Under the pieces are notes generated by a model. That model was not told the origin of the DNA and ran no database searches. It saw only the letters and a list, made by a program, of their open reading frames with translations. This document shows, in pieces, positions 1-55,800 of a stretch of 64,000 nucleotides of DNA. The DNA comes from Ruminococcus sp. GTDB lineage: Bacteria; Bacillota; Clostridia; Oscillospirales; Ruminococcaceae. Each line of letters opens with the position of its first letter. Position 1 is the stretch's first letter. The stretch spans positions 266-64,265 of the forward strand of contig NZ_JAFYYT010000029.1 of NCBI RefSeq assembly GCF_017549005.1. Direction: 5' to 3'. Both the position numbers and the translations under genes were made by a program.

Positions 1-70
1 TTATTTGACGCTTACGGTTCATAAGCAATTTCATGGTTTTAACCGCTGAATCTGCGTATATAAAGAAGAT

Positions 71-115
71 GCGGCTTCCGGAAGTACTTTACATACTTCC
101 AGGAAGCCGCTTTTT
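71..115. terminator. Intrinsic terminator between convergent transcription units
   Basis: Inverted repeat GCGGCTTCCGGAAGTA / TACTTCCAGGAAGCCGC (71-110) followed by TTTTT (111-115). It lies between a plus-strand frame that stops at TAA 22-24 (gene body left of the window) and the stop of the minus-strand gene 209..11248. Confidence 0.6.
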
Positions 116-208
116 GTGTTTAAGTCAAATCAAGTTTCATCGCCATCATTTCCGAAGCGTTTTTGTGCTCCTGACACAGTTTTTTGATATTATGAAGACG
201 CCGGTACA

Positions 209-3200
209 TTAATCATCCTTCAAGAAATCGTGATCGACCTTTGCATTAGTATAAATCAGATAATCGTCTGCATAGCTGCCGGCAATCTCCCCCGAGCTCA
301 TGTTGCTTAGCTTCACTGAAAGGTTTACTTTATAATTAGCATATTCCGTAAAGCCTGCTCCGGTCTTGGCATTGAAACCTATGTTGATATAAATGTAGCC
401 GTTTTCATCTACCCGGTATCCGGAAGAACCCGGTGTTTCTCCGGAAGCAACTACTTCCTTCGGAATAGTCAGGGTAAATGTATCAGCATTCGCGGGAACA
501 GTAACAAGATCATTATAACTGCCACAAGTAATATGTAAGTTAGTCCCCGATGCTGTTATCGGTGTACTGGAATCATTTGTAGTCACTTCATAAGATCCGT
601 TTCGTTGAACAGCTCCCCAATAATTACTAATAGGGGAAACATTCTGATAGCTTGCAGAAGTATATGGACCTCCTGCCGGCAAATCTGTCTTTTTCTGCAA
701 TGACAGCGTCAGGATAAGACTATCTGCGTCTTGAAGCGCACTTTCTATATTCTGAACATTATACTGGGCAGTTGTATCAACCGGCATATAAGTATTCATC
801 GAATATTTACCGCTAACACCCAGTCTTGAATAGTTCTCACTTGGCGAACCGTCTTCATCATAGCAATCCAGTTCGGGTTCAGCATAATATTTCATGCTTG
901 CCGTACTAAGTGACTGACGGTAATAAATATGCTTTATGGCAGCAGGCTCTTCCAAAGGTTCTGACATGTTCGAAAAAGCAATACTTGCCGAATCGTATGC
1001 CAGATTCGATGCTGCTCTTACGCTTACACCAGTATCACTTGCTACCTTTTGCGGAAACTCACTCACATAATCGTCAAAATCAAGTCTTATTCTCGAATAG
1101 ATAGTCACTCCATCATTTTGCAGAATAGTCTGACCTCCATTAACCGTAACTACATTGATGTAGTTATCTTCAAGATTGATGTTCGCAGAACTGATACTAT
1201 TAATACCGGTATCTGTCATATCCGCTTCATCACCTGGCGGAATGGCAGTTCCGATTCTGTACCAAGCCTGTATATCTGTTGCGTCATTTTCAGGATCAAG
1301 CCCGGAAATGTTATTTGTTATCAATCCGTTTTCTCCCTTTCTATCAAGGAATAGATTAAACGAATGATAAATGTTAGCATTCACAGATCTTAAAATAGTA
1401 TTAACATTGGCATCTTTAGGAGTTATTATTGTCTTTGCATAAATATTCAGCGTGTGGTTACCATTATCAATTTCAAGATCATTCGGTAAAACAGTAAGTT
1501 CGGTTCTCTGATCAAACAGATTTCCAATATAGACCTGACGATTTATTGTAGTACTATTATCGCCATAATAACAGTTAACCTTTGCAGATTTCGTTACTGC
1601 ATTATTCGTGCCGCTTGCATAGCTCGGAGCGTCAAAGTTTTCCGGTGTTCTGATATAGTAACCATACAAATTATTATCTTCTTCGTTTCCCGGTACAAAC
1701 ATACTGATATAGTAGTTCTCGTAAACATCTCCAGAAGAAAGTGTCAGATCATATTCACCTCCGCTTCCGACATATTCATAATATGTCGGAGTTCCGTTAG
1801 AAGATTTGGTATACGCATAATGAGTAGATCCGATGTTTGATGGTGTTCCTGCGTACAAGTTATATTTTCCGTTCCTACTGCCATTCGGTGTCGCAGTAAT
1901 CTTCTGTGCAATGAGTTCATTAAATGTACTCACACTGAAATAATTATTGCTACTATCTTTGAACTTTCTAAGATCAAATGTAATTCGGTCATTGGCCACT
2001 GCAAAATCCGTACTGTTCAGCAATACCTGATACTTCTTGTCATGATCTCCATTAGGATCGACAAATATCATATACGTGTTATTTGGAAGCATGTTAGTTG
2101 CTTTATGCTCGGTTTTATCGATATAGAAATACTTATCATGATTCCAGTTCAGATTACCCGAATCAAGCAACGCAACAATGTCATCATGACTATAGGTATA
2201 TCTTATGTATGTAGTAAACCACGTATTCAGATTATCAACATGTGTATCTCTTCCGGATGTAGCAAGCTTCGCACTGTAAGGATTTGTGCTTTCAGCTCCG
2301 GCAACATATGATACTGAATTTGTACCATTCATTACTGCCGCCGAGAAAGAAACCTCAATTTCCTTGATTGTATATACAGGGATATACAAATGATATGCAA
2401 TTTTATCTGTATTAAACGGATCTTTAAACTGCACATCTACCAGCGTAAACGTATTTTCTCGTTTTGAATCAGCATTAGCACCGTTCAACGCAAAAGAACC
2501 TTTTGTATTTGCATTTGGTGGAGTCCATTCAATACCGGGAGTAATGCTGTCCGTAATGAACTTGCCGCCACTGTAACTGCAGTTTTTGACATCAATGGAA
2601 TAATAATCACTTGAAGCGGTATAGTCCGTTGATGTATTAGTTACAAGCTGTATATAGCGGTTTATAAGATTTGTAGTTTCATCTGTTTCATTATTTGCGA
2701 TTACAACTACAGCAAAATTCTCAACGCCGGATGGCAATTCACCACCTTTTTCAGTTTGATATGTCGAGATACGATCACCGTCATCAGCAGTAGTTCGCTT
2801 CATATAGTAATCAATTTTGTTATTACCATATATTTCGCCTGCATCATCATTGAGTGCATTAAATGTTGTATAGCGCCTTGAATAATTCTCTGCATTTTGA
2901 TCTGTCAAAATCATATCTTCATATATCTTTAGTGCCATAGTGCTTTCGGCAGTCTTTCCGCTGTATTCAGCAGTACTCGATGCAGAAGCAGCTAAAGCTG
3001 CACCATCACCTGAAATGATCTCATCTGTACCCATTTTAGCCTGTGGATTGATGTTTACAAACGGATATTTTGGCATATCAACATTGTTTGCAGCATTATA
3101 TCCGGAAACAGCAATTGTATAGGTCGTAGTCGTTTCAGTATCAGCCGAAGCATCAGCTACAACTTTATAAATCTTGCCTTCACTTTCAGAGATAGACCAT

Positions 3201-6200
3201 GTTGTTGAGTTTTCCGATACGCCGTCTTCAACCGCAACGGCATCTCCCGTCACAGCGCTGCCATAACGATATTCAATTGTTTGAGTTTTAGTGTTCTTTT
3301 CATCGCCACTGATCGTTACTGTTACAATAGTACGAGTTATTATTTTATTAGTCGTATCTATTGAGTAGCTTTCAGTAACAGAGTTTGCATCACCCTCCTG
3401 TTTTTCAGCGGTCACTTCTGTTGAAGTTCCATTACAAGCACCTGTGTAGTCGGCGAAAACGAAGGAGGCATTTGAGAAATTAGTTCTGTTTCCAACGTTT
3501 TTGGTAAAGCCATTGCCATAAATTGCTATGCCTGAAAACTGGATAGATGTCGCATTATCACTTGTATCAACAAAACCTATCCATGCTCCCATTTTATCGC
3601 CGGAATTGGTTAGAATATTATCAAGTTTAATATTATATCCTAACAGCTGATTAGCGGATTTTTTTATAATCTGCCCGATGATACCTCCTGCATAATTTCC
3701 TGATGCTCCAATCGTGCAATTTTCAATTGAACTGTCATGAAGATAACAAGTTACACTGTTTGTTGCCGAACTTGCATAGCCAATAAAACCGCCAACATAA
3801 CTCTGTTTATTACTTTTAGCAGTGATGTCGTAGTTTGAGATCTTGCAGTCTTTTATCAATACATTATGGGTAACCTTGTTGTTGACTATATTCGTATAAG
3901 GATAGAGTCTGCCAATGAAGCCTCCTGCGTAGCCTGAATTATTATCTTTAGTAAAAAGATTGTTAGCATAGATAGTATTGTGTTTAGATGGTGATCCAAT
4001 CATTTTACAATTATCCAATGTAATTGAATATGTTGTCCAGTTTGAATCCCATTTACCACCATAGAAACCACCGGCAAAACTGCCATTAATATTAATTCTT
4101 TCGACTGTACAATTTTTAAAAAATGCAACACCGGTTGTTCCACCACTTGCCTGTGATTGCATTGCACCTACAAGCCCACCTACAAATCGAATATTATCAT
4201 TTCCAATGGTGATATCACATCCTTCTGAAGGCATGACCTTCATATCATAGATCTTACAACCATTGCCTGCAAAGCCAACAAGACCTCCTGCAGCAGTATA
4301 ATAATTCAATGAAGTTTCGGCAAATTTGAACGACTTAATTTTTACTGTAGAATAATCATTTAAATCATTATTATCCGCCAATGAAGAAGTGCCATAAATA
4401 TGCACTGCTCCTTCTTGAATTTTACCAACAAAACAACCAATAGCATTTCTTGCTTTTTCATTGCTCTCAATATTTCTTGCAGATGTCATTTCAACAGAAA
4501 CATTATTTGCATTACATTGTTTTATTGTGAAATAATTGCTTGTACTGCTCAAGCCTGAAAAGCCAATAATTCCACCTACAAAATCTGCACCGCTTACAAC
4601 AAGATTATCAAGATCAATGTAGGAAAATTCACCATAAACGCCGTCTCTTATCCAGCCACAAACGCCACCAGAAGAAAGCCATAAAATTCTAGAATTATCA
4701 TTCGGGGTTTCAACATAATTTTGTTCTTGATTAGAAGTTGCATATGTGTTACTGTAAATCTCTGTATTTACTGAACCGGTTAGTGTGAATTCAGTTACTT
4801 TTGTTTTTAGAATAATGCTGTTAAAGAGAGCAAGTCCATTAGTTTGTGGAACCGTATAATCACCTTTAGCTGTATTACCTAAATAAGGTATATTATTGTT
4901 AGCTGAATCACTAAGAACTTGATTTACGCCCTTATGAAGGGTATCAAAATAATTATCGGCTTTGAACTTATTCAGGTAAATATCCTCATCAATAGTGCAG
5001 TTATCTCCGGTGAAAGTATCTACTTTCATACTGTATTTGTTATTCAAAACAGTTGTTTCATAATCATAAAAGCCCACACTTCCCAGTCCTCTGAAGCTAT
5101 CCGGCAGTTGATAGGTATACTCGTCAAGCGGCGTAACAGTATCGGGTTCTCCCTCGGTCTCGCTTGGCGTTACAGTCCCGTAAGTGGTTTTGCCCGTCAG
5201 ATTAATATCATAGTAGCCTTTAGTGCTTGTAACACATCGTGCAGGGTAATCTCCGCTTGTATCAGGAGCAGTATACCATCTGATTATGTACGGAACAGCA
5301 GTGTTAGCGGCAGTATCGGCACTTGCATAACCGTAATCCGTGTTAGATGTATCAATATTCGCCTTTCCAATATCGGAATAATCCGCAATATGGCTCATAC
5401 CATACACTGTAGTATTTGTTCCATAGGACAATGAAGTTGTATAATTACCTTTGGCTGTTTGAGCTGTTCCGGCACACGACTGTGTGATAAGCGAGAGAAT
5501 GAAGAACGCCTGAGAATTGGGTATATTTATCGTTCCGTCATTCGATGCTGAAGAAGGTGGTGTAACAGACAGCTTGTTCGTCTCATTCTTATTGATGTCA
5601 GTGATTGTATAATGTTTCGTGCCGTTCTTAAGTGTATGAATCAAATCAGCATTCGCACCATCAGCCGTAGAGAAGCGCACAGTTGTATCATCATCCTGAT
5701 ACTTGCCATCCTCATCAACTGAGAACTTCGTTGTTTCATTTACTGCATAACCATTGATAACACGACCGACTATCGGATTGACATAGATTGCTGCTTTTGC
5801 CGCAACCGTGTTCGAAGCCAGATTATTTGAAGTATTTGTTTTGTAATAGACTTTTAGTTTTGTACTATCTATGGCAGTATTTGCAGCTGTCATATTCTTG
5901 AAAATAAGGCCACCAAATACGATAACCCCCACATAACCGCCAACCGGAATAATTGTTCCAAATTTTTGTGAGCCGTCATTATCAGTCAATGTAATCGTCG
6001 TGGCATGAGCCACATTGCTGCTATCAGTATAGGAATACTTAACATAGCTGTTGTCAATGATATTATCTCCGCCCATGATCTCGCCGATAATACCACCATA
6101 ATACTTGCAATTGGAAGCATAACCAAAGTTAGCATTATTGTATCCGGCTGTTGATTGTGTAAGTGCAATATTTCCTGCATTTACTATAATATTAACATCC

Positions 6201-9200
6201 TTAACAACACAACCATTTGATACATTTATAAGTGGAGACTTGCTATTGTTCGTAATAGAGTAAAGCGGAGTGCCATCTTGTTTCTTTTCACCAACAATTA
6301 CACCTCTGAATGCCATGTTAGCATCAGTTTTGCCAAGTCCGACAAAACCAGTTGCAGAATCACCGGATAAGGTAATATTATCATCTATTTTATAATATGC
6401 GTTTGCAAGATAATACTGAACATTAACTACATCCCAATAAATGTTGCCATTCTCATAGCCAGTTCCGGCAGTATTAGGTGAGAATTCCAGATGATAACCG
6501 CTTCCGTTCTTGTCAGTACACCAGCGAGAACCGGTTGTGTTGTCTGAAATAGATGCATAATTTGATGTTCCTTTAGGAAGTTTGACTTTTGAAAGCTCAT
6601 TTGTTGTACCATTTGAAATAAACCTTGACACAGCCACAAGCTGTTTGCCGTCGGTAATAATATATGGATCATTGTAAGTACCACAACCTGACGTCAAGCC
6701 CTCAGCCGATACATTAACCTTCAGTTCTCTGTAATAAAGAGCATTAGCCTGAGAGGCAACAAACGATTCTTTAACATAAGGAAGAAAACCCGTACTGAAG
6801 ATATAGGGCGAGCCGCTCTGATATGTTTCCAGATCTGTATAGTAAGAACTACCGTCATATTTGTTTTCCAGAGAAACATTGTTTTCACGATATTCTGCAG
6901 AATCTGTAATTTCTTTACCATAAGTAACCCATCTTGTACCATTCGCACCATTACCCCAGTCTTCTGTTATCGTATAATAATACTTAAGCTTAGCATTATT
7001 ATCAGTGCTGATAGATGCAAGAAGCGTAGAGTCAGTAAAGATCGAGCTTGAAGTACCATATGCGGTGTCCAGAGCAGTATTACCGTTTAACGTGCCGGCT
7101 TCTCTCGAATCGAGCTTGATCTTAGTAAATTCAATAGTAAGATTTGCTCCCGAAGCAGCACCAAGAAGGCTCTTCGCAACAGTAGTTCCTAAACCATAAT
7201 TGTGAGAAGTGCTGATTCCTTCAAGCTTTATCGTAATGTCATCAGCAGAATCAATACTGTTTATTCTTGTAATATTGTTTACAAGGAGATAGCCGTCATC
7301 ATATGCTGCATTTGCAGTAGTTTTAGCAACTATTCCGTCAAGGACCAATGTGCTTCCGTTAGATGAAACGATGCTACCGTTAGAAGTTCCGCTTATAAGA
7401 ACACCCGAAACACCACTTAATTCAAGAAAACTTCCCTTTAAAGTATTGCTGCCGCTGATAGACAGAGTTTTTGTATTGGGAAGCGATAAAAACAGACCGG
7501 AATGCATAAGATAGTGCTGATTAGCTGAAGCTGGATCACGAGTATAATTATCTGTTACATTGTATGAACCAAAAAAAGCTTCGGCAGCATATGCCCCACT
7601 GTAATCCATTGTAAGCGTAAGGTTGTTTATAGTGTAATCCTCTCTTCCTTCGATAGGATAAAAAGAGAGACCTGTCATGTCAGCAGCACCTGTCAGTGTA
7701 TTGTCGGAAATTGAACTTTCAAAAAGTTCTTCTATATTTTTTGCGGCATATTTTTTTACACTCCAGAGCAGAATATTCTGACCGGCATTTGTATTATCTA
7801 AAACATCCAGATTATAATAGTATCTAGTATGCTCGTTAGCATATGTTGTATCTCCCAACGCAGTTGATGATGCACTGGTGAGCTTGTTCTGATAAGTGCC
7901 GGTAACAGAAATCTTTGCTTCTCCGTAACCATCATCCGGATTTGCTGAAGAATCGTGTCTTCCACCGTTCATGTTGATTGAAACAACACCTGCGCCATGT
8001 GTGGTAGTATTTCCGCCTGAAGTTACGCTATATGTTCCTTTGGTAACATCAGGAGCAGAATACGCTGCCAACTCATCATAAATACCCAGAGAATTCGGCA
8101 GAGTGATTCCTGTTGAACCTGTTTTATCTGTAAGTGTATAACCAGCATTAAGAACGTTAAGATAAAGACCTTTATCCTTATCGTTCTCATAAGCCTTATT
8201 TACGAGCATGCCAAGAGAAGTGCCCGCGCCATTTGACATAGACATTTTTGTAATGGTAAGATTATTGACTGTCCATCTTCCGGTCGCTTCAAAGCACATT
8301 ACACCAACATTAGCGGAAGAATTTGTTATCGTGCCATCTGTAACGGTCAAACCGTCAATAGTCGTATCGGTATCATGCCATACATAACCAAGGAAACCTC
8401 CGCCGTTTGTAGAAGCTTTATTGATGATAATGCAGTTATTGAAAGAAAGATGATCTATATTGATCTTTCTGCCCGAATAAGTTCCCGATGTGATATAACC
8501 GATCAATCCACCGCCATTAGCATTACCACCGGCAGAAAAACTGTTATCAACCATCCTATGCGATACAGTAAGTGTATCACTGTTGCCTTGTGCAATGTTA
8601 ATTGTGAACTTCGGTGAAGTTACTCTTCCTATAGCTGCACCAAGATAATTATCGCTGCTAAAATAGCCGCTGATGTTAAAAGTGGTGCTGATAGTATTTG
8701 TACCTGTAATATCGATCGAACCATTATCTGTGTTATTGGAAACAACACCAATTAGTCCTCCGATATTCTTTGTACCGATAGAGGATGGTTCTTTATAATT
8801 TATCGTTTGGTTAGCAGTTATTCCATTCAATATGGTTTTGCCATTGGATTTTGCTGCAATACCGCCGATATTCATTTCGCTGCTCTTATTATGGACATCA
8901 ATACTGCCACTGATAGTGAGTGAATTTACTGTGCCGGCATTTCCGCTTGTACCATTACCGATAACGGCAAACAGGCCATTGTATGGATGAGCATATATCT
9001 GACCTACACCCTCTGTGTTTGGGTTCACAGCTGTGCCACTGCCGGTAAAACCATACGCCTGACCTGTAGCAAACGTAACATTATGAGAATTACCATTTAA
9101 AGTTCCCGTAAATTCGCCTACAGAATCAGAACCATCACGCATAAAACCAGTGATACCTGTATTGGCAAAAGAGAGGTCATTCGTTAAGTCCAGAGTTGTC

Positions 9201-11248
9201 CCAAGCAAATATGCACGGGTATTATTTCCGCCGGTAAATTTCAGGCAGTCATAATCAGAGCCCTGATTAAGCTGAATGTTGAGTGCAGTTTTCACCAAAT
9301 CAGTTTGAGTCCCCATTGAAGTCTGAGCAGCCTTTATTGTAACAGTATGATTGGCAGAATCCAGAGTAAGAACTCCATTTGCGCTATCTTCAATGTCGGC
9401 GATCCTTACAACTTCTCCCCACGTACCAAGATCATCAACGCTAGAGGCACTGCTCGAACGCCTGAACGACCAACCGGTTGCAGCTGTGGTAATCGCATTA
9501 TTTCCGTCTCTGACTGACGAAACGCCATTTGTTCCATCACCGATTGCATAAATAAGCACATTATTATTCTTACCAACAAGCTGGCCGCCCTTCTTTGACT
9601 TAGCCCCTGACATATTCGTTACACCACTAAGGCGCAGCACACCATTCTTAAAGTTGCCGACTATACCGCCTCCTTTGAATCCGTCTTGATCAGTTGCTGT
9701 AACGGTAATATCTCCGAGGACTAAGAATACACCTCTTGTTTCTGACGTCTTACCAACTAAACCGCCGAAATAGCCTTCGCTATCTGCTCGAGCAGTTCCC
9801 GTTGCTGTAATGTTCATATCATCAGCATTAATATATGCAGCTCCGTCGGCATAACCTATCGCTCCGCCGAAAGAACCAAAAGACGCATTCGCTGTGGCTG
9901 TGATAGCAAGATCATCAAGCACAAGACTATTTACGATATTGTCTGTAATATACTTTCCGGCGATACCGCCAAAATAGCCTCCGCTTGCAGTGCTTCCGGA
10001 ACAAACATTTACATTACCTGTATTTCCTGTATTCTTTATTGTCAGTTCTGCTGCTGTTACCGACGAGCCTTTATTATTTTCAAGCACACCGAAAACACCA
10101 CCGCAATTATCAGCACTTACGGTAGCTGTGATACTGTAATCTTTCAAATCAAAGGCGGATGCAGCATTGGAATAACAACCATACAGACCGCCAGCACCGA
10201 AAGTACCTGTTACAGTTCCGCCGATTGCCAGAGGTGATGAAAGACCGTTTATTGTTGCTGAAGATGAAGTCACACCTACAAGACCTCCGGCATACCCGTT
10301 TCCGGACGTTACTGAAACACTTGAGAAAACAGGATAAGAACCCAGCGTCAACGAAGCATTTCCTTCCATTGTTCCGACAAGTGAGCCCGCATTTCCATTA
10401 TCAGAATAAACAGCAGGACGGGATGCCGAGGTATCATTAACTGTAAGTCTCGAGCCTGTTTTCATGATGCCGCAAAGTTCACCGACGTCCTTTATATCAT
10501 TCTCGCCTGATGAAGTGTTTGAAACTGCTGCCGTTGAGTTGTTATTAAATGAAAGTACAACATCAGCATCTGTCTCAATCTGCCCGATTACACCTGCAAA
10601 AGCATTTGTATTACCACTGGCAACAGTAATTTTCCAATTTGCAGCACGTGAACCATGATGCACAAAATCTGCAAGAAGAGGTGATGATGCACTGTTGTTT
10701 TTAGTGATTTCAAGAGTAATATCATTACCACTGTTATCAGTGATTTTTGCATTAGTGCTGACGTGGGTAAATATTGCTCTCGGAAGCGTAACATTACCCA
10801 TACCATTCGAAGCAATAAATCTTACCGAGCCGGCAAACGGAACTCCTGCATTTCCAAGCCCCATGAAACCTAAGTCTCCGGCGACTTCAGGGAAAGTTAT
10901 TGAAAGTGTGTCTTCCTTATGAGTATTACAGAAAGTTCCGCCTTCATTAACACTATAATAATAGCAATAATCTATGAATTTTCTTATACCGTCAGCGTCA
11001 TTGCTGAAATCGATTGATGTACTTGAAAAAGCACCAACAAGATTTGTAGGTTCATATGACGGAGTCTCTTCCTCAGCTTTTACCGTCATAAAGGCCGAGA
11101 AACTGAACAACCCAAATAACCCATCCGAATACATGGAATTTATGACAAGCATAAATACTGTAATAAAGCTCAGCAGTTTCCGGAACAGCTTTCTATTACT
11201 TCTGAATATCTGGGATCTTTCAGGTTTTTTATTGTTCATATATCTCAT
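209..11248 (-). CDS. Giant secreted surface protein (3,679 aa) with two blocks of GLUG-like GG[LIF][VIA]G repeats; putative adhesin
   Basis: Uninterrupted 11 kb ORF with GGTGA 5 nt upstream of the ATG. The N-terminal hydrophobic segment ends FSAFMTVKA/EEE. More than 20 motifs such as GGLVG, GGIAG, GGLIG, GGFIG and GGIIG fall in two blocks (about aa 215-1000 and 1620-2600). A central 'CGTYNDPYIITDGKQL' module-start motif is typical of GLUG/beta-helix adhesins. No LPXTG motif, dockerin or C-terminal TM segment is present. Confidence 0.9.
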   Translation of the reverse strand: MRYMNNKKPERSQIFRSNRKLFRKLLSFITVFMLVINSMYSDGLFGLFSFSAFMTVKAEEETPSYEPTNLVGAFSSTSIDFSNDADGIRKFIDYCYYYSVNEGGTFCNTHKEDTLSITFPEVAGDLGFMGLGNAGVPFAGSVRFIASNGMGNVTLPRAIFTHVSTNAKITDNSGNDITLEITKNNSASSPLLADFVHHGSRAANWKITVASGNTNAFAGVIGQIETDADVVLSFNNNSTAAVSNTSSGENDIKDVGELCGIMKTGSRLTVNDTSASRPAVYSDNGNAGSLVGTMEGNASLTLGSYPVFSSVSVTSGNGYAGGLVGVTSSSATINGLSSPLAIGGTVTGTFGAGGLYGCYSNAASAFDLKDYSITATVSADNCGGVFGVLENNKGSSVTAAELTIKNTGNTGNVNVCSGSTASGGYFGGIAGKYITDNIVNSLVLDDLAITATANASFGSFGGAIGYADGAAYINADDMNITATGTARADSEGYFGGLVGKTSETRGVFLVLGDITVTATDQDGFKGGGIVGNFKNGVLRLSGVTNMSGAKSKKGGQLVGKNNNVLIYAIGDGTNGVSSVRDGNNAITTAATGWSFRRSSSASSVDDLGTWGEVVRIADIEDSANGVLTLDSANHTVTIKAAQTSMGTQTDLVKTALNIQLNQGSDYDCLKFTGGNNTRAYLLGTTLDLTNDLSFANTGITGFMRDGSDSVGEFTGTLNGNSHNVTFATGQAYGFTGSGTAVNPNTEGVGQIYAHPYNGLFAVIGNGTSGNAGTVNSLTISGSIDVHNKSSEMNIGGIAAKSNGKTILNGITANQTINYKEPSSIGTKNIGGLIGVVSNNTDNGSIDITGTNTISTTFNISGYFSSDNYLGAAIGRVTSPKFTINIAQGNSDTLTVSHRMVDNSFSAGGNANGGGLIGYITSGTYSGRKINIDHLSFNNCIIINKASTNGGGFLGYVWHDTDTTIDGLTVTDGTITNSSANVGVMCFEATGRWTVNNLTITKMSMSNGAGTSLGMLVNKAYENDKDKGLYLNVLNAGYTLTDKTGSTGITLPNSLGIYDELAAYSAPDVTKGTYSVTSGGNTTTHGAGVVSINMNGGRHDSSANPDDGYGEAKISVTGTYQNKLTSASSTALGDTTYANEHTRYYYNLDVLDNTNAGQNILLWSVKKYAAKNIEELFESSISDNTLTGAADMTGLSFYPIEGREDYTINNLTLTMDYSGAYAAEAFFGSYNVTDNYTRDPASANQHYLMHSGLFLSLPNTKTLSISGSNTLKGSFLELSGVSGVLISGTSNGSIVSSNGSTLVLDGIVAKTTANAAYDDGYLLVNNITRINSIDSADDITIKLEGISTSHNYGLGTTVAKSLLGAASGANLTIEFTKIKLDSREAGTLNGNTALDTAYGTSSSIFTDSTLLASISTDNNAKLKYYYTITEDWGNGANGTRWVTYGKEITDSAEYRENNVSLENKYDGSSYYTDLETYQSGSPYIFSTGFLPYVKESFVASQANALYYRELKVNVSAEGLTSGCGTYNDPYIITDGKQLVAVSRFISNGTTNELSKVKLPKGTSNYASISDNTTGSRWCTDKNGSGYHLEFSPNTAGTGYENGNIYWDVVNVQYYLANAYYKIDDNITLSGDSATGFVGLGKTDANMAFRGVIVGEKKQDGTPLYSITNNSKSPLINVSNGCVVKDVNIIVNAGNIALTQSTAGYNNANFGYASNCKYYGGIIGEIMGGDNIIDNSYVKYSYTDSSNVAHATTITLTDNDGSQKFGTIIPVGGYVGVIVFGGLIFKNMTAANTAIDSTKLKVYYKTNTSNNLASNTVAAKAAIYVNPIVGRVINGYAVNETTKFSVDEDGKYQDDDTTVRFSTADGANADLIHTLKNGTKHYTITDINKNETNKLSVTPPSSASNDGTINIPNSQAFFILSLITQSCAGTAQTAKGNYTTSLSYGTNTTVYGMSHIADYSDIGKANIDTSNTDYGYASADTAANTAVPYIIRWYTAPDTSGDYPARCVTSTKGYYDINLTGKTTYGTVTPSETEGEPDTVTPLDEYTYQLPDSFRGLGSVGFYDYETTVLNNKYSMKVDTFTGDNCTIDEDIYLNKFKADNYFDTLHKGVNQVLSDSANNNIPYLGNTAKGDYTVPQTNGLALFNSIILKTKVTEFTLTGSVNTEIYSNTYATSNQEQNYVETPNDNSRILWLSSGGVCGWIRDGVYGEFSYIDLDNLVVSGADFVGGIIGFSGLSSTSNYFTIKQCNANNVSVEMTSARNIESNEKARNAIGCFVGKIQEGAVHIYGTSSLADNNDLNDYSTVKIKSFKFAETSLNYYTAAGGLVGFAGNGCKIYDMKVMPSEGCDITIGNDNIRFVGGLVGAMQSQASGGTTGVAFFKNCTVERININGSFAGGFYGGKWDSNWTTYSITLDNCKMIGSPSKHNTIYANNLFTKDNNSGYAGGFIGRLYPYTNIVNNKVTHNVLIKDCKISNYDITAKSNKQSYVGGFIGYASSATNSVTCYLHDSSIENCTIGASGNYAGGIIGQIIKKSANQLLGYNIKLDNILTNSGDKMGAWIGFVDTSDNATSIQFSGIAIYGNGFTKNVGNRTNFSNASFVFADYTGACNGTSTEVTAEKQEGDANSVTESYSIDTTNKIITRTIVTVTISGDEKNTKTQTIEYRYGSAVTGDAVAVEDGVSENSTTWSISESEGKIYKVVADASADTETTTTYTIAVSGYNAANNVDMPKYPFVNINPQAKMGTDEIISGDGAALAASASSTAEYSGKTAESTMALKIYEDMILTDQNAENYSRRYTTFNALNDDAGEIYGNNKIDYYMKRTTADDGDRISTYQTEKGGELPSGVENFAVVVIANNETDETTNLINRYIQLVTNTSTDYTASSDYYSIDVKNCSYSGGKFITDSITPGIEWTPPNANTKGSFALNGANADSKRENTFTLVDVQFKDPFNTDKIAYHLYIPVYTIKEIEVSFSAAVMNGTNSVSYVAGAESTNPYSAKLATSGRDTHVDNLNTWFTTYIRYTYSHDDIVALLDSGNLNWNHDKYFYIDKTEHKATNMLPNNTYMIFVDPNGDHDKKYQVLLNSTDFAVANDRITFDLRKFKDSSNNYFSVSTFNELIAQKITATPNGSRNGKYNLYAGTPSNIGSTHYAYTKSSNGTPTYYEYVGSGGEYDLTLSSGDVYENYYISMFVPGNEEDNNLYGYYIRTPENFDAPSYASGTNNAVTKSAKVNCYYGDNSTTINRQVYIGNLFDQRTELTVLPNDLEIDNGNHTLNIYAKTIITPKDANVNTILRSVNANIYHSFNLFLDRKGENGLITNNISGLDPENDATDIQAWYRIGTAIPPGDEADMTDTGINSISSANINLEDNYINVVTVNGGQTILQNDGVTIYSRIRLDFDDYVSEFPQKVASDTGVSVRAASNLAYDSASIAFSNMSEPLEEPAAIKHIYYRQSLSTASMKYYAEPELDCYDEDGSPSENYSRLGVSGKYSMNTYMPVDTTAQYNVQNIESALQDADSLILTLSLQKKTDLPAGGPYTSASYQNVSPISNYWGAVQRNGSYEVTTNDSSTPITASGTNLHITCGSYNDLVTVPANADTFTLTIPKEVVASGETPGSSGYRVDENGYIYINIGFNAKTGAGFTEYANYKVNLSVKLSNMSSGEIAGSYADDYLIYTNAKVDHDFLKDD

Positions 11249-11302
11249 GCTATCACCACACTTATTGTTTTATAATTCATTAACCCTATCCTGAGCTTTT
11301 TA

Positions 11303-12352
11303 TCATTGCAGTTCACAGTGAATATAATTGGCCGCATCATTAGTTCCGGTATACGGGATATTCGCCTTCTTCTTGTACAGCTGCAGCTCATATCGGCTTT
11401 TACTGTTCGTAGAATTGACCACAATGGTTACCTTCTTCCAGCTATCATATGTTCCACCGCTTATGACAACAGGAATAGTGACATTATTGTAAAATGTCAC
11501 TCCGGACAGACTGCTGTTGAAGAAAAAATCATCAATATCAAAATAAACAGGATTCCACATAATGTCCAGGTTGCCGCTTCCGCTTCCTGAAATAACATAA
11601 TTGTAAAAATCATAATCTGTTGTTGCTGTATTTTGCTCAGCAAGAGTTCCGGACCATGCCGCTGTGACAACGACATTCTTTGAACCATAGAGATTTGTGC
11701 GAATCGTCCTAAGTCCGTTATCAGTAGGCACAGCCTCAACATGGACATAAAACCTGGGATTCGTTTCGTTAAAATCCCTTTCCGGAATAATCACCTTATA
11801 TTTGTCGGTAGACACTGAGCCGCCGGGAAGGGTTTCATAATTTGACGAATTACCAAAAGCCACTTCAAACCCGTTTGATGCAGAAAACTCTGTCATTGCC
11901 GGAGTTGATATAATGCCTGTTGTATTATTATCCTGACTCTTGCCAATATAGTATCCGGTTGCTTCTGCTACAATTGCGTTATATTCATCTGCATCATTAA
12001 GAGCCGTCGCAAGATCACTGAATGACATTATAGTACCATTGTGCTTCACATAAAGCTGCGCTGTCAGCGTATACTGAATTTCCGATGGGTTTGGAGTTCC
12101 CGGTGAATTCACATCAAAATTGTTGACATTAACATTATACTCATGTGCCGGCATTCTTCTTTCATAAAGATCCGCATACATACAGTTGGAAGAGAACAAT
12201 TCCCTTGGAGCTGATTTAGTTGTAACAACACGCTTTACCGAAGATACCTCAGTATAGATAGCATAGGTCACGAAAGTTCCAAGAATAGCCAATACGGCAA
12301 CAAGCCAGACCGTTATCCAGTGCTTTTTCAGTTTTCTTAAAACATCTTTCAT
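11303..12352 (-). CDS. Putative minor fibre subunit with SipW/TasA-like N-terminal signal motif (P4)
   Basis: 349-aa ORF with AAAGGAGG upstream. N-terminus: KKHWITVWLVAVLAILGTFVTYAIYTEVSS, a degenerate form of the YAWFT motif of the three upstream genes. Lies in the same operon. Confidence 0.7.
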   Translation of the reverse strand: MKDVLRKLKKHWITVWLVAVLAILGTFVTYAIYTEVSSVKRVVTTKSAPRELFSSNCMYADLYERRMPAHEYNVNVNNFDVNSPGTPNPSEIQYTLTAQLYVKHNGTIMSFSDLATALNDADEYNAIVAEATGYYIGKSQDNNTTGIISTPAMTEFSASNGFEVAFGNSSNYETLPGGSVSTDKYKVIIPERDFNETNPRFYVHVEAVPTDNGLRTIRTNLYGSKNVVVTAAWSGTLAEQNTATTDYDFYNYVISGSGSGNLDIMWNPVYFDIDDFFFNSSLSGVTFYNNVTIPVVISGGTYDSWKKVTIVVNSTNSKSRYELQLYKKKANIPYTGTNDAANYIHCELQ

Positions 12353-12447
12353 CCCCTGCTCCGCCTCCTTTCGGTAATTTCCGGTAATAATTCAACAATA
12401 GTTCTTATTATAATAAAATATCAAAATAAACTTCTGCAAAAGCTATT

Positions 12448-13278
12448 TCAGTTTCCTGACCATCTGCTTGCTGTCAGGTAAATCATATCTGTTTCTTTTT
12501 TATTGTCAGCCGTATTCCATTCTGAAAAGCCTTCTTTTTCTGCTGCAGTTTCGTCAAAACTAATCTCCAGAATATAATAATCGTGATCACTGGTTGAATC
12601 ATATGTTATTCTTCCGCTCTGTTCATAAATCGGAACGGCATAGATTTCAGGATCATCATCATAATCATATGTATCGTTATAATAGCTGCCGCTTCCAAGC
12701 GCTATCTGTCTTCCATAATTGGATCTTGAATTCTGATCGGAATTCTTTGATGTTAGAGGGATCTGATTCTCCAAGGTGTAATAGAAAGTATATGTGCTTT
12801 CTCCCTGTACTTTCAGCGGTTCAGATATGTATGTTACATATTGTCCTCCCTGAACACTTGTATGTTCCTTAGCTCTGTAAATCTTATAAATGAACGGAAT
12901 ATTCGTGGTGTGTGCAAGCTGAATTTGGTAAGGGATCTTATAATCACCTGCACTTACGCTAAACACGACCCTATGCGGAGTTCCCGATTGAATACTTTCA
13001 ATATCGATATCATTCAAGCTGAAATACTGAACGGCATCATAATGTCCCGCACGAATATCCAGATTATTCGGTTCTTCGATCTTTGTAAAGGCTTCAAGCT
13101 TTCCGCCAAGTGCAAACCACGCATAAACAGGCAGTGCGATCATCAGGATCAATGTGAATACAGAAGCGATTATCGCCTGCACTTTTTTAGCTGTACTCAG
13201 TTTGGAGAACATATTTTTCAGCCTTTTTAGCACATTGGACTCTTTTATATCTTTAGTTTCATTCTGCAGCTCGTTCAT
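12448..13278 (-). CDS. Putative minor fibre subunit with SipW/TasA-like N-terminal signal motif (P3)
   Basis: 276-aa ORF. Its start ATG overlaps the stop of the upstream gene (TAATG, 1-nt overlap at 13278). N-terminal TM segment ends ...LMIALPVYAWFALGGKLE. Confidence 0.75.
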   Translation of the reverse strand: MNELQNETKDIKESNVLKRLKNMFSKLSTAKKVQAIIASVFTLILMIALPVYAWFALGGKLEAFTKIEEPNNLDIRAGHYDAVQYFSLNDIDIESIQSGTPHRVVFSVSAGDYKIPYQIQLAHTTNIPFIYKIYRAKEHTSVQGGQYVTYISEPLKVQGESTYTFYYTLENQIPLTSKNSDQNSRSNYGRQIALGSGSYYNDTYDYDDDPEIYAVPIYEQSGRITYDSTSDHDYYILEISFDETAAEKEGFSEWNTADNKKETDMIYLTASRWSGN

Positions 13279-14318
13279 TATGGACCACCTCCCACGGCAG
13301 TTCCTTCAGTAACTGAAAGCTTTATCAACAGATAGTGCACACGCATTCCTATTTCATTATCTCCCTGATCGTACATATCGCCATAGGAGATATAGTGTTC
13401 TCCTATAGTTCCAACATCAACGGTATCGTCTGGACTTATTCCCTTAAGATAGTACTGAGGGAAGTGTTCGATATTATCGGTAATTGCAGTATAAGAATCG
13501 CAACCGTATGAATCATCATCATGACAAAACGGTATAGTGGTGACCCCCGAAGCACTGGCATTCACAAAAGTGCTCAAAGTATTCGGCCAGACCCAGTAGA
13601 TATTAATAGGGGTAGCTGTATTCTTGCCTGTTACAGTTCTGGTCATGATCCTGTGCATATCTTCATCTGAACAGATCGGTGTCGAGTATGTTACTGTAGT
13701 AACACCATTTTCTGTGACCTCATCTCTGTGCTCAAAAAAAAGAATATGTCCGTTAAGGAGGTTTTGTGCTGTAGTGCCGTCACCGCCGTCCAGTTGAGAG
13801 AGCGGAGTCATTGCGAGTTCATCATCCGTATGATCTGTCGGAGTATTATTCACATCATTATATAATGCCTGATATCCGATTAATTCAAAATCAAATTTAA
13901 GATCAACGCTGTCCTTTTTCGGGATCACATTAAACGAAATAACGCCTTCAGTATTGGGATGAAGTCCCTCGTCACCGGGATGATCGTCATCAACATACTC
14001 GTTATAATTAATCAGATTATTGGTCGAAGTCATTTGCCAGTACAGAGCTTCTTCTTCGTGAACCGCAATATGATACGGGTTTTTAAAAATGCCGTCCCTG
14101 CTTCCGGAAAGCATTGTCACTTCAAAGTTCTGTCCGCCGACCTTCACCCCCATACCAGATCCCCCGACGTTCTTATTCATGGTAAACCATGCAACAGAGC
14201 TAAACACCCATACAATAAAGGCGAGTATCATAACGACGCCGATCTTGAAAAGGGAGTTGCGTCGTTTTCTGATTAGCTCATTATTAGGTGGGCTTTGACC
14301 GCTATTCAATTTTTTCAA
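13278..14318 (-). CDS. Putative fibre subunit with SipW/TasA-like N-terminal signal motif (P2)
   Basis: The ORF track starts at 14366, but GGAGGTGAGGCG-TTG places a strong RBS 5 nt before the TTG at 14318, giving (M)KKLNSGQ... N-terminus: ...AFIVWVFSSVAWFTMNKNV, which shares the heptapeptide AWFTMNK with P1. Confidence 0.75.
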   Translation of the reverse strand: MKKLNSGQSPPNNELIRKRRNSLFKIGVVMILAFIVWVFSSVAWFTMNKNVGGSGMGVKVGGQNFEVTMLSGSRDGIFKNPYHIAVHEEEALYWQMTSTNNLINYNEYVDDDHPGDEGLHPNTEGVISFNVIPKKDSVDLKFDFELIGYQALYNDVNNTPTDHTDDELAMTPLSQLDGGDGTTAQNLLNGHILFFEHRDEVTENGVTTVTYSTPICSDEDMHRIMTRTVTGKNTATPINIYWVWPNTLSTFVNASASGVTTIPFCHDDDSYGCDSYTAITDNIEHFPQYYLKGISPDDTVDVGTIGEHYISYGDMYDQGDNEIGMRVHYLLIKLSVTEGTAVGGGP

Positions 14319-14555
14319 ACGCCTCACCTCCGTATGGCAATTCAGCTCAAAAAGTGGAACGCGCAAAGAGACCTCTTCGGACGGAGCCCGGAACAGAGTG
14401 ATGCTCCGAGCAGTCCGAAGCTATGATGACGTACCTTTAACAGAACCGACTGTCTGTGCACAGGGTGAACTGAGGGCACATTACCACAAAAAGGAAACCG
14501 AAAGATTTTTGCGCGCAAATACTCAATGTAAAAATCTCACATCTTTTCAATATAT

Positions 14556-14584
14556 ATTATAACATAAGATGAAATGAATTTCAA
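14556..14584 (-). promoter_or_regulatory. Internal sigma-A-type promoter for P2-P5
   Basis: Minus strand reads TTGAAA (14584-14579), a 17-nt spacer, then TATAAT (14561-14556). It lies downstream of the P1 terminator and about 230 nt upstream of the P2 start. Confidence 0.5.
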
Positions 14585-14660
14585 GCATTTTCACTGAAAA
14601 TTCGCAATTTATCCACAATAAACTATTAGTATTATCCACTATAAAAATAACATATAGGTA

Positions 14661-14693
14661 TTAAAAAGTAATCCCCTCCCGAATGGGGAGGGG
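14661..14693 (-). terminator. Intrinsic terminator/attenuator after the major-subunit gene
   Basis: Perfect 8-bp G+C stem CCCCTCCC / GGGAGGGG (14673-14680 and 14686-14693) with a 5-nt loop. On the minus strand it is followed by ATTACTTTTTAA. Confidence 0.6.
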
Positions 14694-14879
14694 AAACTTC
14701 TTAGGAGGTTAACAACCTATGATGAAACTCTATCATGAATCTCTCATGCCATCGCCTTTTTGAGTTCATTATCATTTTAAGGTTTAAACCGTCCTATATT
14801 GGAGGAAGATTTATAGAGAGGGAGTGATTTTTATTAATTATGCGCCTGTATTCAGTAATTAGCAATTAGTGAGTAGTGA

Positions 14880-16046
14880 TTAAGCACCACCGCCGCCGCC
14901 ATTGCCTTGCTGCTGAGCAGCTGTTGTAACAACATCTATCGGATTAGCAACAGCAGTCTGTGTCGGAGTCTTTGTTGCATCCCAAGCATTTGAGCTAATC
15001 TCAGTAACAGCATTCAAACCAGTTACAGGCGGATTTGCACTAGGATCATCTGCATCTGTTCCGTTCACAAGTTTAAAATCTAGGTCAAGTTTCCACTGAC
15101 CACTTTCTAATGCTGCATATGTAGCTGAATTACAAGTCGTATCTTCGCCTTCAAGCCATACTCTAACAAGAACCTTATAATATCCTGTTTCTCCAGCATT
15201 AATTGTATCAATCAAGCCAGAGCCAGTTGTAATAGTGCTCTTAGTTGAAGCAGTAGCTACTGCTCCGCCGGTAAAGTAATCTGCACCATTTAATGCTAAT
15301 ATCGCCTTTGCAGTTTCAGTCTGAGCAGCAGGATCAAGTTGACCAACAGCAGCTCCATCGCCTGAATTTCCAATACCAGCCTGTTCAGCTGTCAATTCCT
15401 TAGCAAAGAGAGCAACTCTCCAAGCCTTATCGCCTGTGCCTAAACCGCCATATGATAATGTCTCAGCAGTATTATCTCCAGCATAGTCAAGATCACATCT
15501 TGTCATTCTGATCTGCTGTCCAGCAGCTGTTCCCGTCGCCTTTAAGTAGAATACATAATCAACATATCCATATGCAGTGCCGAAATCTTCTGAATTTGGA
15601 TCAACACCATAAGCACTATTAAATTTGCTATCAAAGAAGTATTTACCAGCTGCTGAGGCTGTTGCATTTGTATTTGTTGCTTCAACATATGGAACATAAG
15701 CTTCAGTTACAGTATCATGCGCTTTGCTACCGTTTTCAGCTGCATCTAATGTGTAGAAGAACTTGCCTGTCTGCGCTGTAACAGATGATACAGGCTCCAA
15801 TAAAGCCTTGCGTCCTTCTATAAGGGTATCTGCCTTGTAAGAACCTTCCGCATTGTTTGAAGAAATCAAAAGGTTTGAGCTAACCTTTGTACGCATTGCA
15901 AGTCCATTTACCTGAACTTCCTTATTCATTGTGAACCACGCATAGGTGGAGGTTCCGAGCATTGAAGCAGAAACCGCAAGCATCATAGCAGCCGGTAAAA
16001 GCTTCTTAGCTGTATTACCTTTTTTCTTGTTATTAGTTTTCATCAT
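14880..16046 (-). CDS. Putative major fibre subunit, TasA/camelysin-like SipW-type signal (P1)
   Basis: 388-aa ORF with AAAGGAAAA RBS. N-terminus: KKKGNTAKKLLPAAMMLAVSASMLGTSTYAWFTMNKEVQVNGLAMRTKV, which resembles the SipW-cognate signal class (...GT.AYFTD). It is the first gene behind a consensus promoter and has its own terminator, as expected for a high-copy subunit. Confidence 0.8.
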   Translation of the reverse strand: MMKTNNKKKGNTAKKLLPAAMMLAVSASMLGTSTYAWFTMNKEVQVNGLAMRTKVSSNLLISSNNAEGSYKADTLIEGRKALLEPVSSVTAQTGKFFYTLDAAENGSKAHDTVTEAYVPYVEATNTNATASAAGKYFFDSKFNSAYGVDPNSEDFGTAYGYVDYVFYLKATGTAAGQQIRMTRCDLDYAGDNTAETLSYGGLGTGDKAWRVALFAKELTAEQAGIGNSGDGAAVGQLDPAAQTETAKAILALNGADYFTGGAVATASTKSTITTGSGLIDTINAGETGYYKVLVRVWLEGEDTTCNSATYAALESGQWKLDLDFKLVNGTDADDPSANPPVTGLNAVTEISSNAWDATKTPTQTAVANPIDVVTTAAQQQGNGGGGGA

Positions 16047-16142
16047 AAGTCATTTTCCTTTCATAATAAATTTCCCGTGGAAATCGGCTCCGCGGCTGCC
16101 TCCAGTTTGTGTGTTTGCGTTATACTTTTTGTTTACAATCAT

Positions 16143-16171
16143 ATTATAACTTGTTTTAATGGAAATGTCAA
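16143..16171 (-). promoter_or_regulatory. Consensus sigma-A promoter of the fibre operon
   Basis: Minus strand reads TTGACA (16171-16166), a 17-nt spacer, then TATAAT (16148-16143). This is about 95 nt upstream of the P1 start. Confidence 0.65.
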
Positions 16172-16389
16172 TATCATGGGGAAAAGTTCATATTTTCTCA
16201 AAACATTTCAGCGTTTTACACAAAGAGCAGTACTTCCAATGTACTTTTGCACCAAGCGGATAATTACTAACTGTATACAAAATTTCCGATATTCACAACA
16301 GTAAACATCGTTAAATAATATGTCCTACCACTTTGGTACGACCTTTCTTTTCCAAATCTTAATAATTCATAAATTTTCTCATTTTCTCA

Positions 16390-16418
16390 TTGCAATTTTA
16401 TTATTAATGTGTTATACT
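16390..16418 (+). promoter_or_regulatory. Promoter of the EAL gene, divergent from the fibre operon
   Basis: TTGCAA (16390-16395), a 17-nt spacer, then TATACT (16413-16418), with TGt immediately upstream (extended -10). Confidence 0.5.
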
Positions 16419-16491
16419 CTTATATGTAAACAGGGTTTTTACTCGATTTTTGCGATTTGACCCGTTTTTCGGGTAGTAAAGGGGTGTGGAT

Positions 16492-18195: not shown

Positions 18196-18360
18196 TTATA
18201 CATGATATCATATTTTAATTATATACTTTTTAGCTGAAAATCGGTTTGAACAAACACTGAATTTAAGATAAGTTTAAGATTATTTTAAGCTTTGTTCATT
18301 ATTATGTAAGTATCATATAGCGACAATCTCATTATCTGTATTATAGGAGGAATGATTAAA

Positions 18361-33575: not shown

Positions 33576-33599
33576 AAGAACCATCCTTTCATAAATAAA

Positions 33600-47363: not shown

Positions 47364-47368
47364 AACAA

Positions 47369-55799: not shown

Positions 55800-55800
55800 C

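Follow-up and report, generated by a model that had tools for sequence, protein, structure and literature searches.

Described fibre systems and the locus examined here

The tapA-sipW-tasA system of Bacillus subtilis and the sipW-bsaA-bsaB-bsaC system of Clostridium perfringens, in which the BsaA fibres are locked by isopeptide bonds (PMC11580942), are the SipW-dependent fibre systems closest to the gene cassette described here. A third system, CoCoPALM, is named in a single paragraph of Bell et al. (eLife 2024, PMC11090510), where it is linked to pilus assembly and its analysis is deferred. The cassette lies in a 64,000-nt stretch of DNA from Ruminococcus sp. (contig NZ_JAFYYT010000029.1, positions 266 to 64,265), referred to here as the window, and encodes four smaller proteins, P1 to P4, followed by a giant protein of 3,679 aa. 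We read this region, with a probability of roughly 0.55, as the structural cassette of a surface filament that depends on SipW-type peptidases and displays a giant adhesin.

The comparison of related loci lends good support to the view that the genes belong to a surface system dependent on SipW, with subunits that are conserved together and a giant cargo. An earlier, sequence-only reading of the window had proposed a TasA-like surface-fibre/adhesin system. The surface system gained a link to SipW-type peptidases and evidence of co-conservation, the kinship with TasA was not borne out, and polymerisation is a step that we infer.

Gene layout and transcription signals

The five genes are co-directional on the minus strand behind a perfect TTGACA-17-TATAAT promoter, as the sequence-only reading had described. 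The genes and their signals are given below by position in the 64,000-nt window, in the order of transcription and with the divergent neighbour last; a slash marks a putative cleavage site.

16143..16171, minus strand: P1 promoter, TTGACA-17-TATAAT, 12/12 consensus matches
14880..16046, minus strand: P1, 388 aa, candidate major subunit, with a predicted signal peptide ending ...GTSTYA
14672..14694, minus strand: intrinsic terminator 3' of P1, 9-pair stem with 7 G-C pairs, then a T-rich tail
14556..14584, minus strand: second promoter, TTGAAA-17-TATAAT plus TG extension, 11/12 matches, predicted to serve P2-P3-P4-giant
14319..14550, minus strand: structured P2 leader, 232 nt, from folding against shuffled sequences
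13278..14318, minus strand: P2, 346 aa from a TTG start (open reading frame to 14366), minor subunit candidate, ...FSSVA/WFTMNKNV
12448..13278, minus strand: P3, 276 aa, minor subunit candidate, ...LPVYA/WFALGG
11303..12352, minus strand: P4, 349 aa, N-terminal hydrophobic segment, then ...VTYA/IYTE
209..11248, minus strand: giant protein, 3,679 aa, predicted secreted, candidate displayed adhesin
71..110, minus strand: terminator hairpin 3' of the giant gene, -30.1 kcal/mol, followed by a T-rich tract
16486..18138, plus strand: divergent EAL-domain protein, 550 aa, PF00563 E = 1.7e-62

The P1 promoter is the sole 12/12 match within 17 kb, and the second promoter, which has an extended -10 element, is the second best in the same span. 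The 5' untranslated region of P1 is approximately 90 nt long and has no notable structure. Because a terminator follows P1 and is itself followed by the second promoter and the leader before P2, the predicted arrangement is two transcription units, P1 alone and P2-P3-P4-giant. This replaces the single five-gene operon that had been proposed, since an 11/12 promoter and a 232-nt leader precede P2. To judge by its perfect promoter and a separate strong terminator (14694-14672), P1 looks like the abundant subunit, which agrees with the earlier description of an abundant first subunit that is terminated separately.

The likely start of P2 is the TTG at 14318, downstream of the ribosome-binding site GGAGGTGA, and the same TTG start was obtained in an independent gene call on L081, an identical metagenome contig. 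P2 and P3 overlap in the sequence TAATG, and from this arrangement P3 is judged to be translationally coupled to P2; coupling of two of the small proteins had also been noted earlier. The P2 leader has a minimum free energy of -77.7 kcal/mol (z = -3.37), with 0/200 shuffles folding as well, and its predicted fold is a multi-stem structure closed by GCGCGCAAA...UUUGCGCG. An Rfam search gave no match for the leader and no riboswitch, those for cyclic di-guanosine monophosphate (c-di-GMP) included, in 11000-17000. The leader may be an undescribed cis-regulatory RNA.

N-terminal motif of P1 to P4 and the giant protein

P1, P2 and P3 each begin with a basic stretch, followed by a hydrophobic segment and the residues A-W-F. 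Among the 89 window open reading frames of at least 100 aa, the pattern [AG]W[FL][TSAR] occurs within the first 110 residues of P1, P2 and P3 only, and to judge by the sequences the common motif is not a product of chance. The P1 family motif, STYAWFTMNKEV (YAWFTMNKEV), is nearly invariant even in relatives of approximately 30% identity, and it is identical in loci with and without the adjoining machinery described below. The predicted mature N-terminus of P1 is W37-FTMNKEV. The corresponding motifs of the other families are as follows.

P2 family: [AG]WF[TS]xN
P3 family: AWFxxQ[RK]
P4 family: looser A/xY, then KRVV...FSSN

The putative cleavage sites in P1-P4 have Ala at -1 and Thr, Ser or Val at -3. 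BLAST, phmmer and hhalign all limit the region shared by P1, P2 and P3 to the N-terminal 45-60 residues or so, a module that consists of the signal and the first 20-30 mature residues. With hhalign, P2 aligned with P1 over N-terminal residues 12-56 at 97% probability and P3 with P1 over residues 8-69 at 89% probability, and no profile similarity was detected between P4 and P1-P3 or P0, a P1 paralogue found in related loci. The N-terminal architecture that had been assigned to all four small proteins is thus confirmed for P1, P2 and P3, whereas P4 differs in its looser motif, and the term "paralogue-like" suits the first 45-60 residues of P1-P3 but neither their remainder nor P4.

The N-termini of the giant homologues consist of a hydrophobic segment, a spacer of approximately 20 aa and an ordinary AxA site (here VKA/EEE). 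The segment FSFSAFMTV ("SAFMT") of the giant protein, which had been regarded as a related motif, is not conserved in these homologues.

Related loci and conserved machinery

A context scan using one genome per species yielded 78 loci with P1 relatives. The hosts were R. flavefaciens, R. albus, Lachnospiraceae, Oscillospiraceae, Christensenella, Huintestinicola butyrica, and metagenome-assembled genomes of rumen Erysipelotrichaceae/Bacilli. Features within 10 kb of a P1 homologue were counted in the 37 loci of at least 18 kb. A SipW-type peptidase gene was present in 18/37 loci, often as two genes, any machinery gene in 25/37, and P2, P3 and P4 together in 13/37. The chance expectation for the linkage of peptidase and machinery genes is approximately 1% by our own rough estimate. 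P2 homologues follow P1 in 22 loci, P4 homologues lie between P3 and the giant gene in 15 loci, and a giant homologue comes directly after P4 in at least 13 fetched loci. The fixed order P1-P2-P3-P4-giant is therefore co-conserved across several Clostridia lineages, and the co-occurrence of the five genes expected from the sequence-only reading is upheld. In many loci, SxSMxP, THR[IV] and GDNN motifs also occur in one or two small proteins.

The full neighbourhood has the order P1, degenerate EAL, P0, SipW1, McrB-like, McrC-N, SipW2, small membrane protein, P2-P3-P4-giant. The two H. butyrica peptidases scored 82.9 and 93.3 bits on TIGR02228, the archaeal/endoplasmic reticulum (ER)-type model with a cut-off of 51.85, and their best named match was SipW. 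The catalytic Ser, His and GDxN are intact in 30/36 SipW1 and 20/23 SipW2 sequences, and SipW1 and SipW2 are probably active enzymes because the catalytic motifs are kept across both families. The SipA/LepA-type pilus chaperones, by contrast, are inactive.

P0 is a membrane-anchored paralogue of P1 of approximately 240-280 aa, related to it at 97% hhalign probability and through a common WLEGxDxxC motif. The McrB-like protein (approximately 525 aa) joins an N-terminal transmembrane and coiled-coil part to a McrB-type AAA+ domain, with Walker A, DEMN and NxD motifs in 39/39 sequences, and it has at least 8,000 matches at E <= 1e-10. The McrC-N (DUF2357) coiled-coil protein is approximately 670-750 aa long and is enlarged to 935-1,074 aa in seven loci. 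A fusion of this protein to SipW2, approximately 985 aa long, is encoded in R. albus and R. flavefaciens YL228 (genes at L011 2569-5532, L082 11606-14566 and L088 11653-14613). The fusion physically joins a domain that binds the cytoplasmic GTPase to an extracytoplasmic protease. The degenerate EAL-only protein of the machinery (approximately 255 aa) has lost its catalytic motifs, and a GGDEF protein adjoins the R. albus machinery (L087, L088).

These neighbourhoods implicate a dedicated SipW-type peptidase in the processing of P1-type proteins. The SipW-type processing that had been predicted from the N-terminal motif is favoured by the peptidases near P1 homologues in 18 of the 37 long loci, but not by the signal models TIGR04088, TIGR04089 and TIGR04090, which miss P1-P4. 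The linked EAL, degenerate EAL and GGDEF proteins point to second-messenger control of the system.

The window cassette and its probable machinery

In line with the sequence-only reading, none of the five proteins is a signal peptidase, a sortase or a secretion ATPase. The window carries the arrangement typical of R. flavefaciens, in which a long EAL gene of the apparently active type and a divergent P1-P4-giant set occur with no peptidase gene; loci of this type were found in strains Y1, MA2007, YAD2003, YL228, ATCC 19208 and UBA1190. The cultured strain YL228 has both parts of the system. Its contig 4 carries an EAL-P1-P2-P3-P4-giant-P1'-P2' cassette, and its contig 1 carries the degenerate EAL, P0, SipW1, McrB-like, McrC-N::SipW2 fusion and small protein genes. 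The machinery proteins of YL228 share 43-74% identity with those of H. butyrica, and the two from YL228 that bear a peptidase pass the Pfam Peptidase_S26 cut-off.

Because the arrangement in YL228 is split and the P1 motif is the same with or without adjoining machinery, the natural, as yet unverified, expectation is that the window proteins are processed by peptidases encoded elsewhere in the genome. By its gene content, the window holds the structural cargo cassette only and not the genes that define CoCoPALM.

Protein families, fold and candidate residues

Searches of Pfam and NCBIfam found no meaningful family for any of the five proteins or their N-terminal fragments; the sequence-only reading had likewise recognised no characterised family in the mature parts of P1-P4. 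The weak matches to DUF2189, Wzz, Arylesterase and FliL were rejected as hydrophobic segments or chance. No PDB sequence match was found for P1, the P1 profile or the giant protein, which were the proteins searched. The close relatives of P1 number 721, all from rumen-type Ruminococcus and metagenomes, and a full hidden Markov model (HMM) scan with the P1 profile gave 3,777 cluster representatives (50% identity) at E <= 1e-3.

The AlphaFold2 model of P1, built from a 60-sequence alignment, shows an all-beta domain with a predicted local distance difference test score (pLDDT) of 80.7 and a predicted template modelling score (pTM) of 0.80. The signal helix and the residues up to 44 (21-44) are disordered ahead of this confident domain. 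Foldseek with the P1 model gave no PDB or BFVD match at E <= 1e-3. The single-sequence model of P3 was unusable (pLDDT 44).

Asn41 of P1 lies within the predicted mature N-terminus and is retained by at least 90% of 60 homologues. Two cysteines do not vary, Cys184 and Cys305, the latter within the WLEGEDxxC motif that is common to P0. From these positions, Asn41 is a candidate for an intermolecular isopeptide bond (compare BsaA N35-K74), and Cys184/Cys305 is a candidate disulfide.

In the giant protein, N, S, T and G each make up approximately 10% of residues, and 20 GG-phi-phi-G motifs occur in three clusters; the repeats appear beta-helix-like. The GLUG-like repeats that had been suggested are matched by these 20 recurrences of the short GG-phi-phi-G motif, but Pfam gave no match to the Glug profile PF07581. 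The statement that the giant protein has no LPXTG, dockerin or C-terminal anchor proved correct, as it has neither LPXTG nor a C-terminal hydrophobic segment, and a search for dockerin domains found none in the five proteins.

Variation between strains

R. flavefaciens UBA1190 (L065), the genome closest to the window, was used for comparison. DNA identity is 86-88% from window position 25963 to 15900, and the similarity stops at approximately codon 49 of P1, just past YAWFTMNKEVQV, the rest of P1 having no DNA similarity. Identity is 94% in the P1-P2 spacer and 73% in the P2 leader together with the P2 N-terminus; the leader stays at 73-94% despite the diverged coding flanks. P2, P3, P4 and the giant protein have 28-33% protein identity to their UBA1190 counterparts. 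For the McrB-like protein, identity is at least 78% across the best 120 clusters, and for P0 it is 73% between genera.

The similarity breaks off (15900; 14173-14850) exactly where the conserved N-terminal modules of P1 and P2 end, a pattern that points to an exchange of the variable bodies by recombination, with the signal/assembly modules and the spacer serving as homology arms. Conserved assembly ends with replaceable exposed bodies would, by analogy, correspond to the pattern of pilins and flagellins.

Proposed mechanism

In the filament model, all five proteins would be exported by Sec, and P1, P2, P3 and perhaps P4 would be held in the membrane by the N-terminal hydrophobic segment. They would then be cut after the conserved Ala (TYA/WFT in P1) by SipW1 and/or SipW2, whose genes presumably lie elsewhere in the genome. 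These peptidases, together with the McrB-like GTPase, the McrC-N protein, the degenerate EAL protein and P0, would constitute the CoCoPALM machinery. The freed N-terminus, WFTMNKEVxVTGM, would be the assembly element, most likely as a donor strand that enters the next subunit in the manner of TasA and BsaA. P1 is the putative abundant shaft subunit, and P2, P3 and P4 would be adaptors or subunits present in few copies. The presumed displayed adhesin is the beta-helical giant of 3,679 aa; with an ordinary AxA signal and without the motif, it may be the distal subunit and act only as a strand acceptor. P0 would form the membrane-proximal base. A cytoplasmic GTPase ring, acting via McrC-N on the extracytoplasmic SipW2 domain, could time or power processing and assembly, and c-di-GMP, through the adjoining active EAL protein, and the structured P2 leader could control output. 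Strains would differ in the exposed parts, which are replaced, and agree in the N-terminal modules and the machinery. The gene content and motifs, the linkage to the peptidase and GTPase genes in related loci, the split onto two contigs in YL228 and the hypervariability are direct observations. Cleavage between Ala and Trp, polymerisation, the position of the giant protein at the tip, the role of the GTPase and control by c-di-GMP are steps that we infer.

A bolder version of the model is offered tentatively, as a possibility that we rate below even odds: P1-P4 and the giant protein may form an unrecognised class of Gram-positive filament, in which a membrane-embedded McrB-type GTPase ring, under the control of c-di-GMP, drives or gates assembly via McrC-N to an extracytoplasmic SipW-type peptidase, the last two being fused in some species. 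A motor of restriction-enzyme origin would then serve as a pilus machine and present strain-specific adhesins of several thousand residues on the fibre-degrading Clostridia of rumen and gut.

Several observations weigh against the filament model. The AWF motif is missing from P4 and the giant protein, and P2, P3 and P4 are possibly permanent anchors, given their long cytoplasmic N-terminal tails and the strong hydrophobicity of the segments that follow. P1-P4, full-length or N-terminal, gave no match to TIGR04088, TIGR04089 or TIGR04090 even at E <= 10. The P1 fold has no significant match to TasA or a pilin; the best match was a self-complemented FimA (E = 2.5e-3, template modelling scores 0.18/0.34), and the other weak top matches were assorted beta-sandwiches. 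Pfam scans and a motif search of the window found no peptidase, sortase, GTPase or P0 gene, and all four public assemblies with the giant gene stop no more than a few hundred bases from its stop codon. McrBC relatives usually act in defence, and the PADLOC candidate PDC-M26A matches the McrB-like ATPase.

Alternative explanations

The alternative that survives best, although we consider it unlikely, is a hypervariable secreted or wall-associated coat of SipW-processed proteins without end-to-end polymerisation, for example a layer like a surface layer or one bound to a capsule, with the giant protein as an independent adhesin under shared regulation. The hypervariability and the high predicted expression fit such a coat too, no pilin or TasA fold was detected, and an exopolysaccharide cluster is present in the window. 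However, the N-terminal module extends past the cleavage site and is common to three otherwise unrelated proteins, which is difficult to account for unless they share an assembly step; two dedicated peptidases and an NTPase are hard to explain for a coat, and the fixed P1-P2-P3-P4-giant order across families suggests an ordered complex.

Less probable is that the N-terminal segments are uncleaved signal anchors, so that P2-P4 and possibly P1 would be a bitopic trans-envelope scaffold that exports or holds the giant protein, and the peptidases would process other substrates. The hydrophobic stretches of P2, P3 and P4 span approximately 27-33 residues (mean Kyte-Doolittle above 1.6 in 19-residue windows) and are preceded by tails of approximately 30-35 residues in P2 and P3 and approximately 9 in P4; P4 has a weak Wzz-like N-terminal match, and P0 is clearly anchored. 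Against this, the Ala at -1 and the small residue at -3 are conserved in P1-P4, the hydrophobic region of P1 is Ala/Ser-rich as is typical of cleavable signals, and the register is the same as that of the proven TasA site.

The cassette could also be a divergent but genuine member of the TasA/BsaA/camelysin family, with the same jelly-roll and the same donor strand beyond sequence detection. The in-register alignment of the P1 and TasA signals (TSTYA/WFT with GGTWA/AFN) stands beside this reading. We consider it improbable, as the searches with PF12389 and the three TIGR models failed with a working positive control: TasA scored 38-42 bits on TIGR04088, with a cut-off of 19, in the same library. 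PF12389 is carried by 120/120 of the TasA relatives listed, and it had no match at E <= 1 in P1-P4 or the giant protein. The models for the SipW-cognate signal (TIGR04088), for camelysin/TasA (PF12389) and for BsaA (TIGR04090) therefore all leave P1-P4 unmatched. The TasA sequence used for the comparison is exactly that of PDB 8AUR, whose mature chain begins at A28. An hhalign comparison of 60 P1 with 35 TasA sequences aligned 31 columns, all within the signal peptide, at 1.7% probability; a broader P1 alignment reached 5.7%, again in the signal only, and P0, P2 and P4 remained below 3%. P3 gave a weak alignment with TasA over the signal and approximately 35 mature residues (22.5% probability, E = 9e-4). 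TasA was also outside the top 50 Foldseek hits of the P1 model. Homology to TasA, as it had been proposed, thus finds no support from PF12389, the TIGR models, hhalign of the mature parts or Foldseek.

The R. flavefaciens Y1 homologue of P1 (P0005) bears the UniRef name "SipW-cognate class signal peptide", yet it has no TIGR04088 match at E <= 10, and TIGR04089 and TIGR04090 miss it too. This public name may come from another pipeline or threshold.

Finally, a conflict or defence module, in which McrBC-derived machinery and hypervariable partners would act against phages or competitors as decoy receptors or by triggered release, is very improbable despite the McrB/McrC ancestry, the match of the ATPase to the PADLOC candidate at 1.3e-37 and the cassette-like hypervariability, as no nuclease domain was detected in the McrC-like protein, the accompanying proteins are peptidases and structural proteins that are exported, the loci have links to c-di-GMP enzymes, and the authors who named CoCoPALM read it, in their paragraph on it, as pilus assembly (PMC11090510).

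Surroundings of the cassette in the window

The divergent 550-aa EAL protein has intact EAL43, DDFGSG164 and EGVE219 motifs and an unassigned C-terminal domain of approximately 300 aa, and by these motifs it is likely an active c-di-GMP phosphodiesterase. Its orthologues, 60-92% identical, flank all cassettes of the R. flavefaciens type.

A Cthe_2159/CotH/dockerin protein (18352-21306, plus strand) adjoins the EAL gene. A CotH-dockerin gene and an EAL gene also flank the Y1 cassette and the YL228 machinery locus (L082 2582-5305; L001 2894-5947). The CotH-dockerin flank may be a shared ancestral flank or may reflect a functional link to CotH kinases. On the other side of the cassette, at window positions 1-208, the ends of the assemblies suggest a repeat or a variable junction directly downstream of the giant gene.

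The rest of the window (31146-33584, 34585-35139 and 41720-42271 on the minus strand, 42674-46222 on the plus strand, and 46314-62617) is typical of a cellulosomal rumen Ruminococcus, with a serpin that carries a dockerin and a MORN-repeat protein. Two extracytoplasmic function (ECF) sigma factor genes are present, each upstream of an open reading frame for a possible anti-sigma factor, as are a 1,182-aa protein with DUF285, leucine-rich repeat (LRR) and dockerin parts, and an exopolysaccharide cluster of approximately 16 kb with a Wzz/ParA-type kinase, a flippase, glycosyltransferases, LicD and DegT.

Significance

The structural proteins have no family name, solved relative or described function, and they are widespread in gut and rumen genomes of the Clostridia and Bacilli type, whose hosts need to adhere to plant fibre and to one another. 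If the filament model is true, an abundant, strain-variable filament with a giant adhesin would be a major unrecognised colonisation factor, with a probable role in phage and host recognition as well. CoCoPALM would gain concrete substrates, and a restriction-type motor would have been re-used for envelope assembly. There would also be a second SipW-cognate signal, A/WF[TS]xN, that current models miss.

Comparison with known systems

Several other readings were considered and rejected. Sortase pili do not fit, as no LPXTG is present in the five proteins or elsewhere in the window; the only TLxTC-like motif in the window lies in the open reading frame 61175-62617, which has matches to Wzz and AAA/ParA-type ATPase domains. 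Type IV pilins and pseudopilins do not fit either, as the hydrophobic segment precedes the motif and does not follow it, and the prepilin-peptidase motif GxGD[VAIL]K is absent from the window; no PilB- or PilC-like family was found among the window open reading frames scanned against Pfam. A prophage or phage origin was discounted on a single weak match in 2.9 million viral contigs.

The chaperone-usher pili (fim, pap) serve as an analogy only. Their genes run from the major subunit through minor subunits or adaptors to the adhesin, which comes last, and the subunits share an N-terminal extension that the tip adhesin does not have. Unlike in those systems, the host here is Gram-positive, the chaperone and the usher are missing, and the structural match is not significant. 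The archaeal AbpA/AbpB pili (PMC9245690) are donor-strand filaments processed by signal peptidase I, for which an accessory multi-domain initiator or adhesin has been proposed; they differ in that the archaeal system has no dedicated peptidase, whereas two are found in the present system, and no homology was detected.

The BsaA system is similar in being a clostridial operon for a SipW-dependent matrix or fibre, with BsaC as a large additional cargo protein. The lock of its fibres is formed by an Asn in the donor strand, and the mature ends predicted for P1 and P2 (WFTMN) have Asn at +5; the BsaA donor strands are likewise disordered in models of the monomers. In contrast, TIGR04090 misses P1-P4, and BsaA export uses type IV pilus proteins and not a McrB-like GTPase.

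With tapA-sipW-tasA the present system shares a probable dependence on a dedicated ER/archaeal-type peptidase, a signal with T-aromatic-A followed by x-F in the register of TasA A27/A28, major and accessory subunits, and an N-terminus that is disordered in the monomer. Homology of the mature parts was not detected, and here there are two peptidases, four subunit families and a giant protein, and structural genes that can sit away from the peptidases. The system also differs because its related machinery includes a McrB-like GTPase, accompanied by a McrC-N protein, the anchored paralogue P0 and an EAL protein that is degenerate.

The machinery beside P1 homologues agrees with what the CoCoPALM paragraph describes, an NxD McrB-like GTPase whose N-terminal part is transmembrane and coiled-coil, a McrC-N (DUF2357) coiled-coil protein and proteins of the signal peptidase family, whereas P1-P4, P0 and the giant protein are not described in the main text of PMC11090510. 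In two of its supplementary files the terms "CoCoPALM", "signal peptidase", "SipW" and "TasA" are absent. Literature searches on SipW with Ruminococcus, on TasA-like proteins with Clostridia and on work following CoCoPALM found nothing beyond the eLife paragraph. Set against these systems, the cassette appears to be a new variation on the theme of SipW-dependent fibres, and there is a real chance that it represents a new class of assembly machine.

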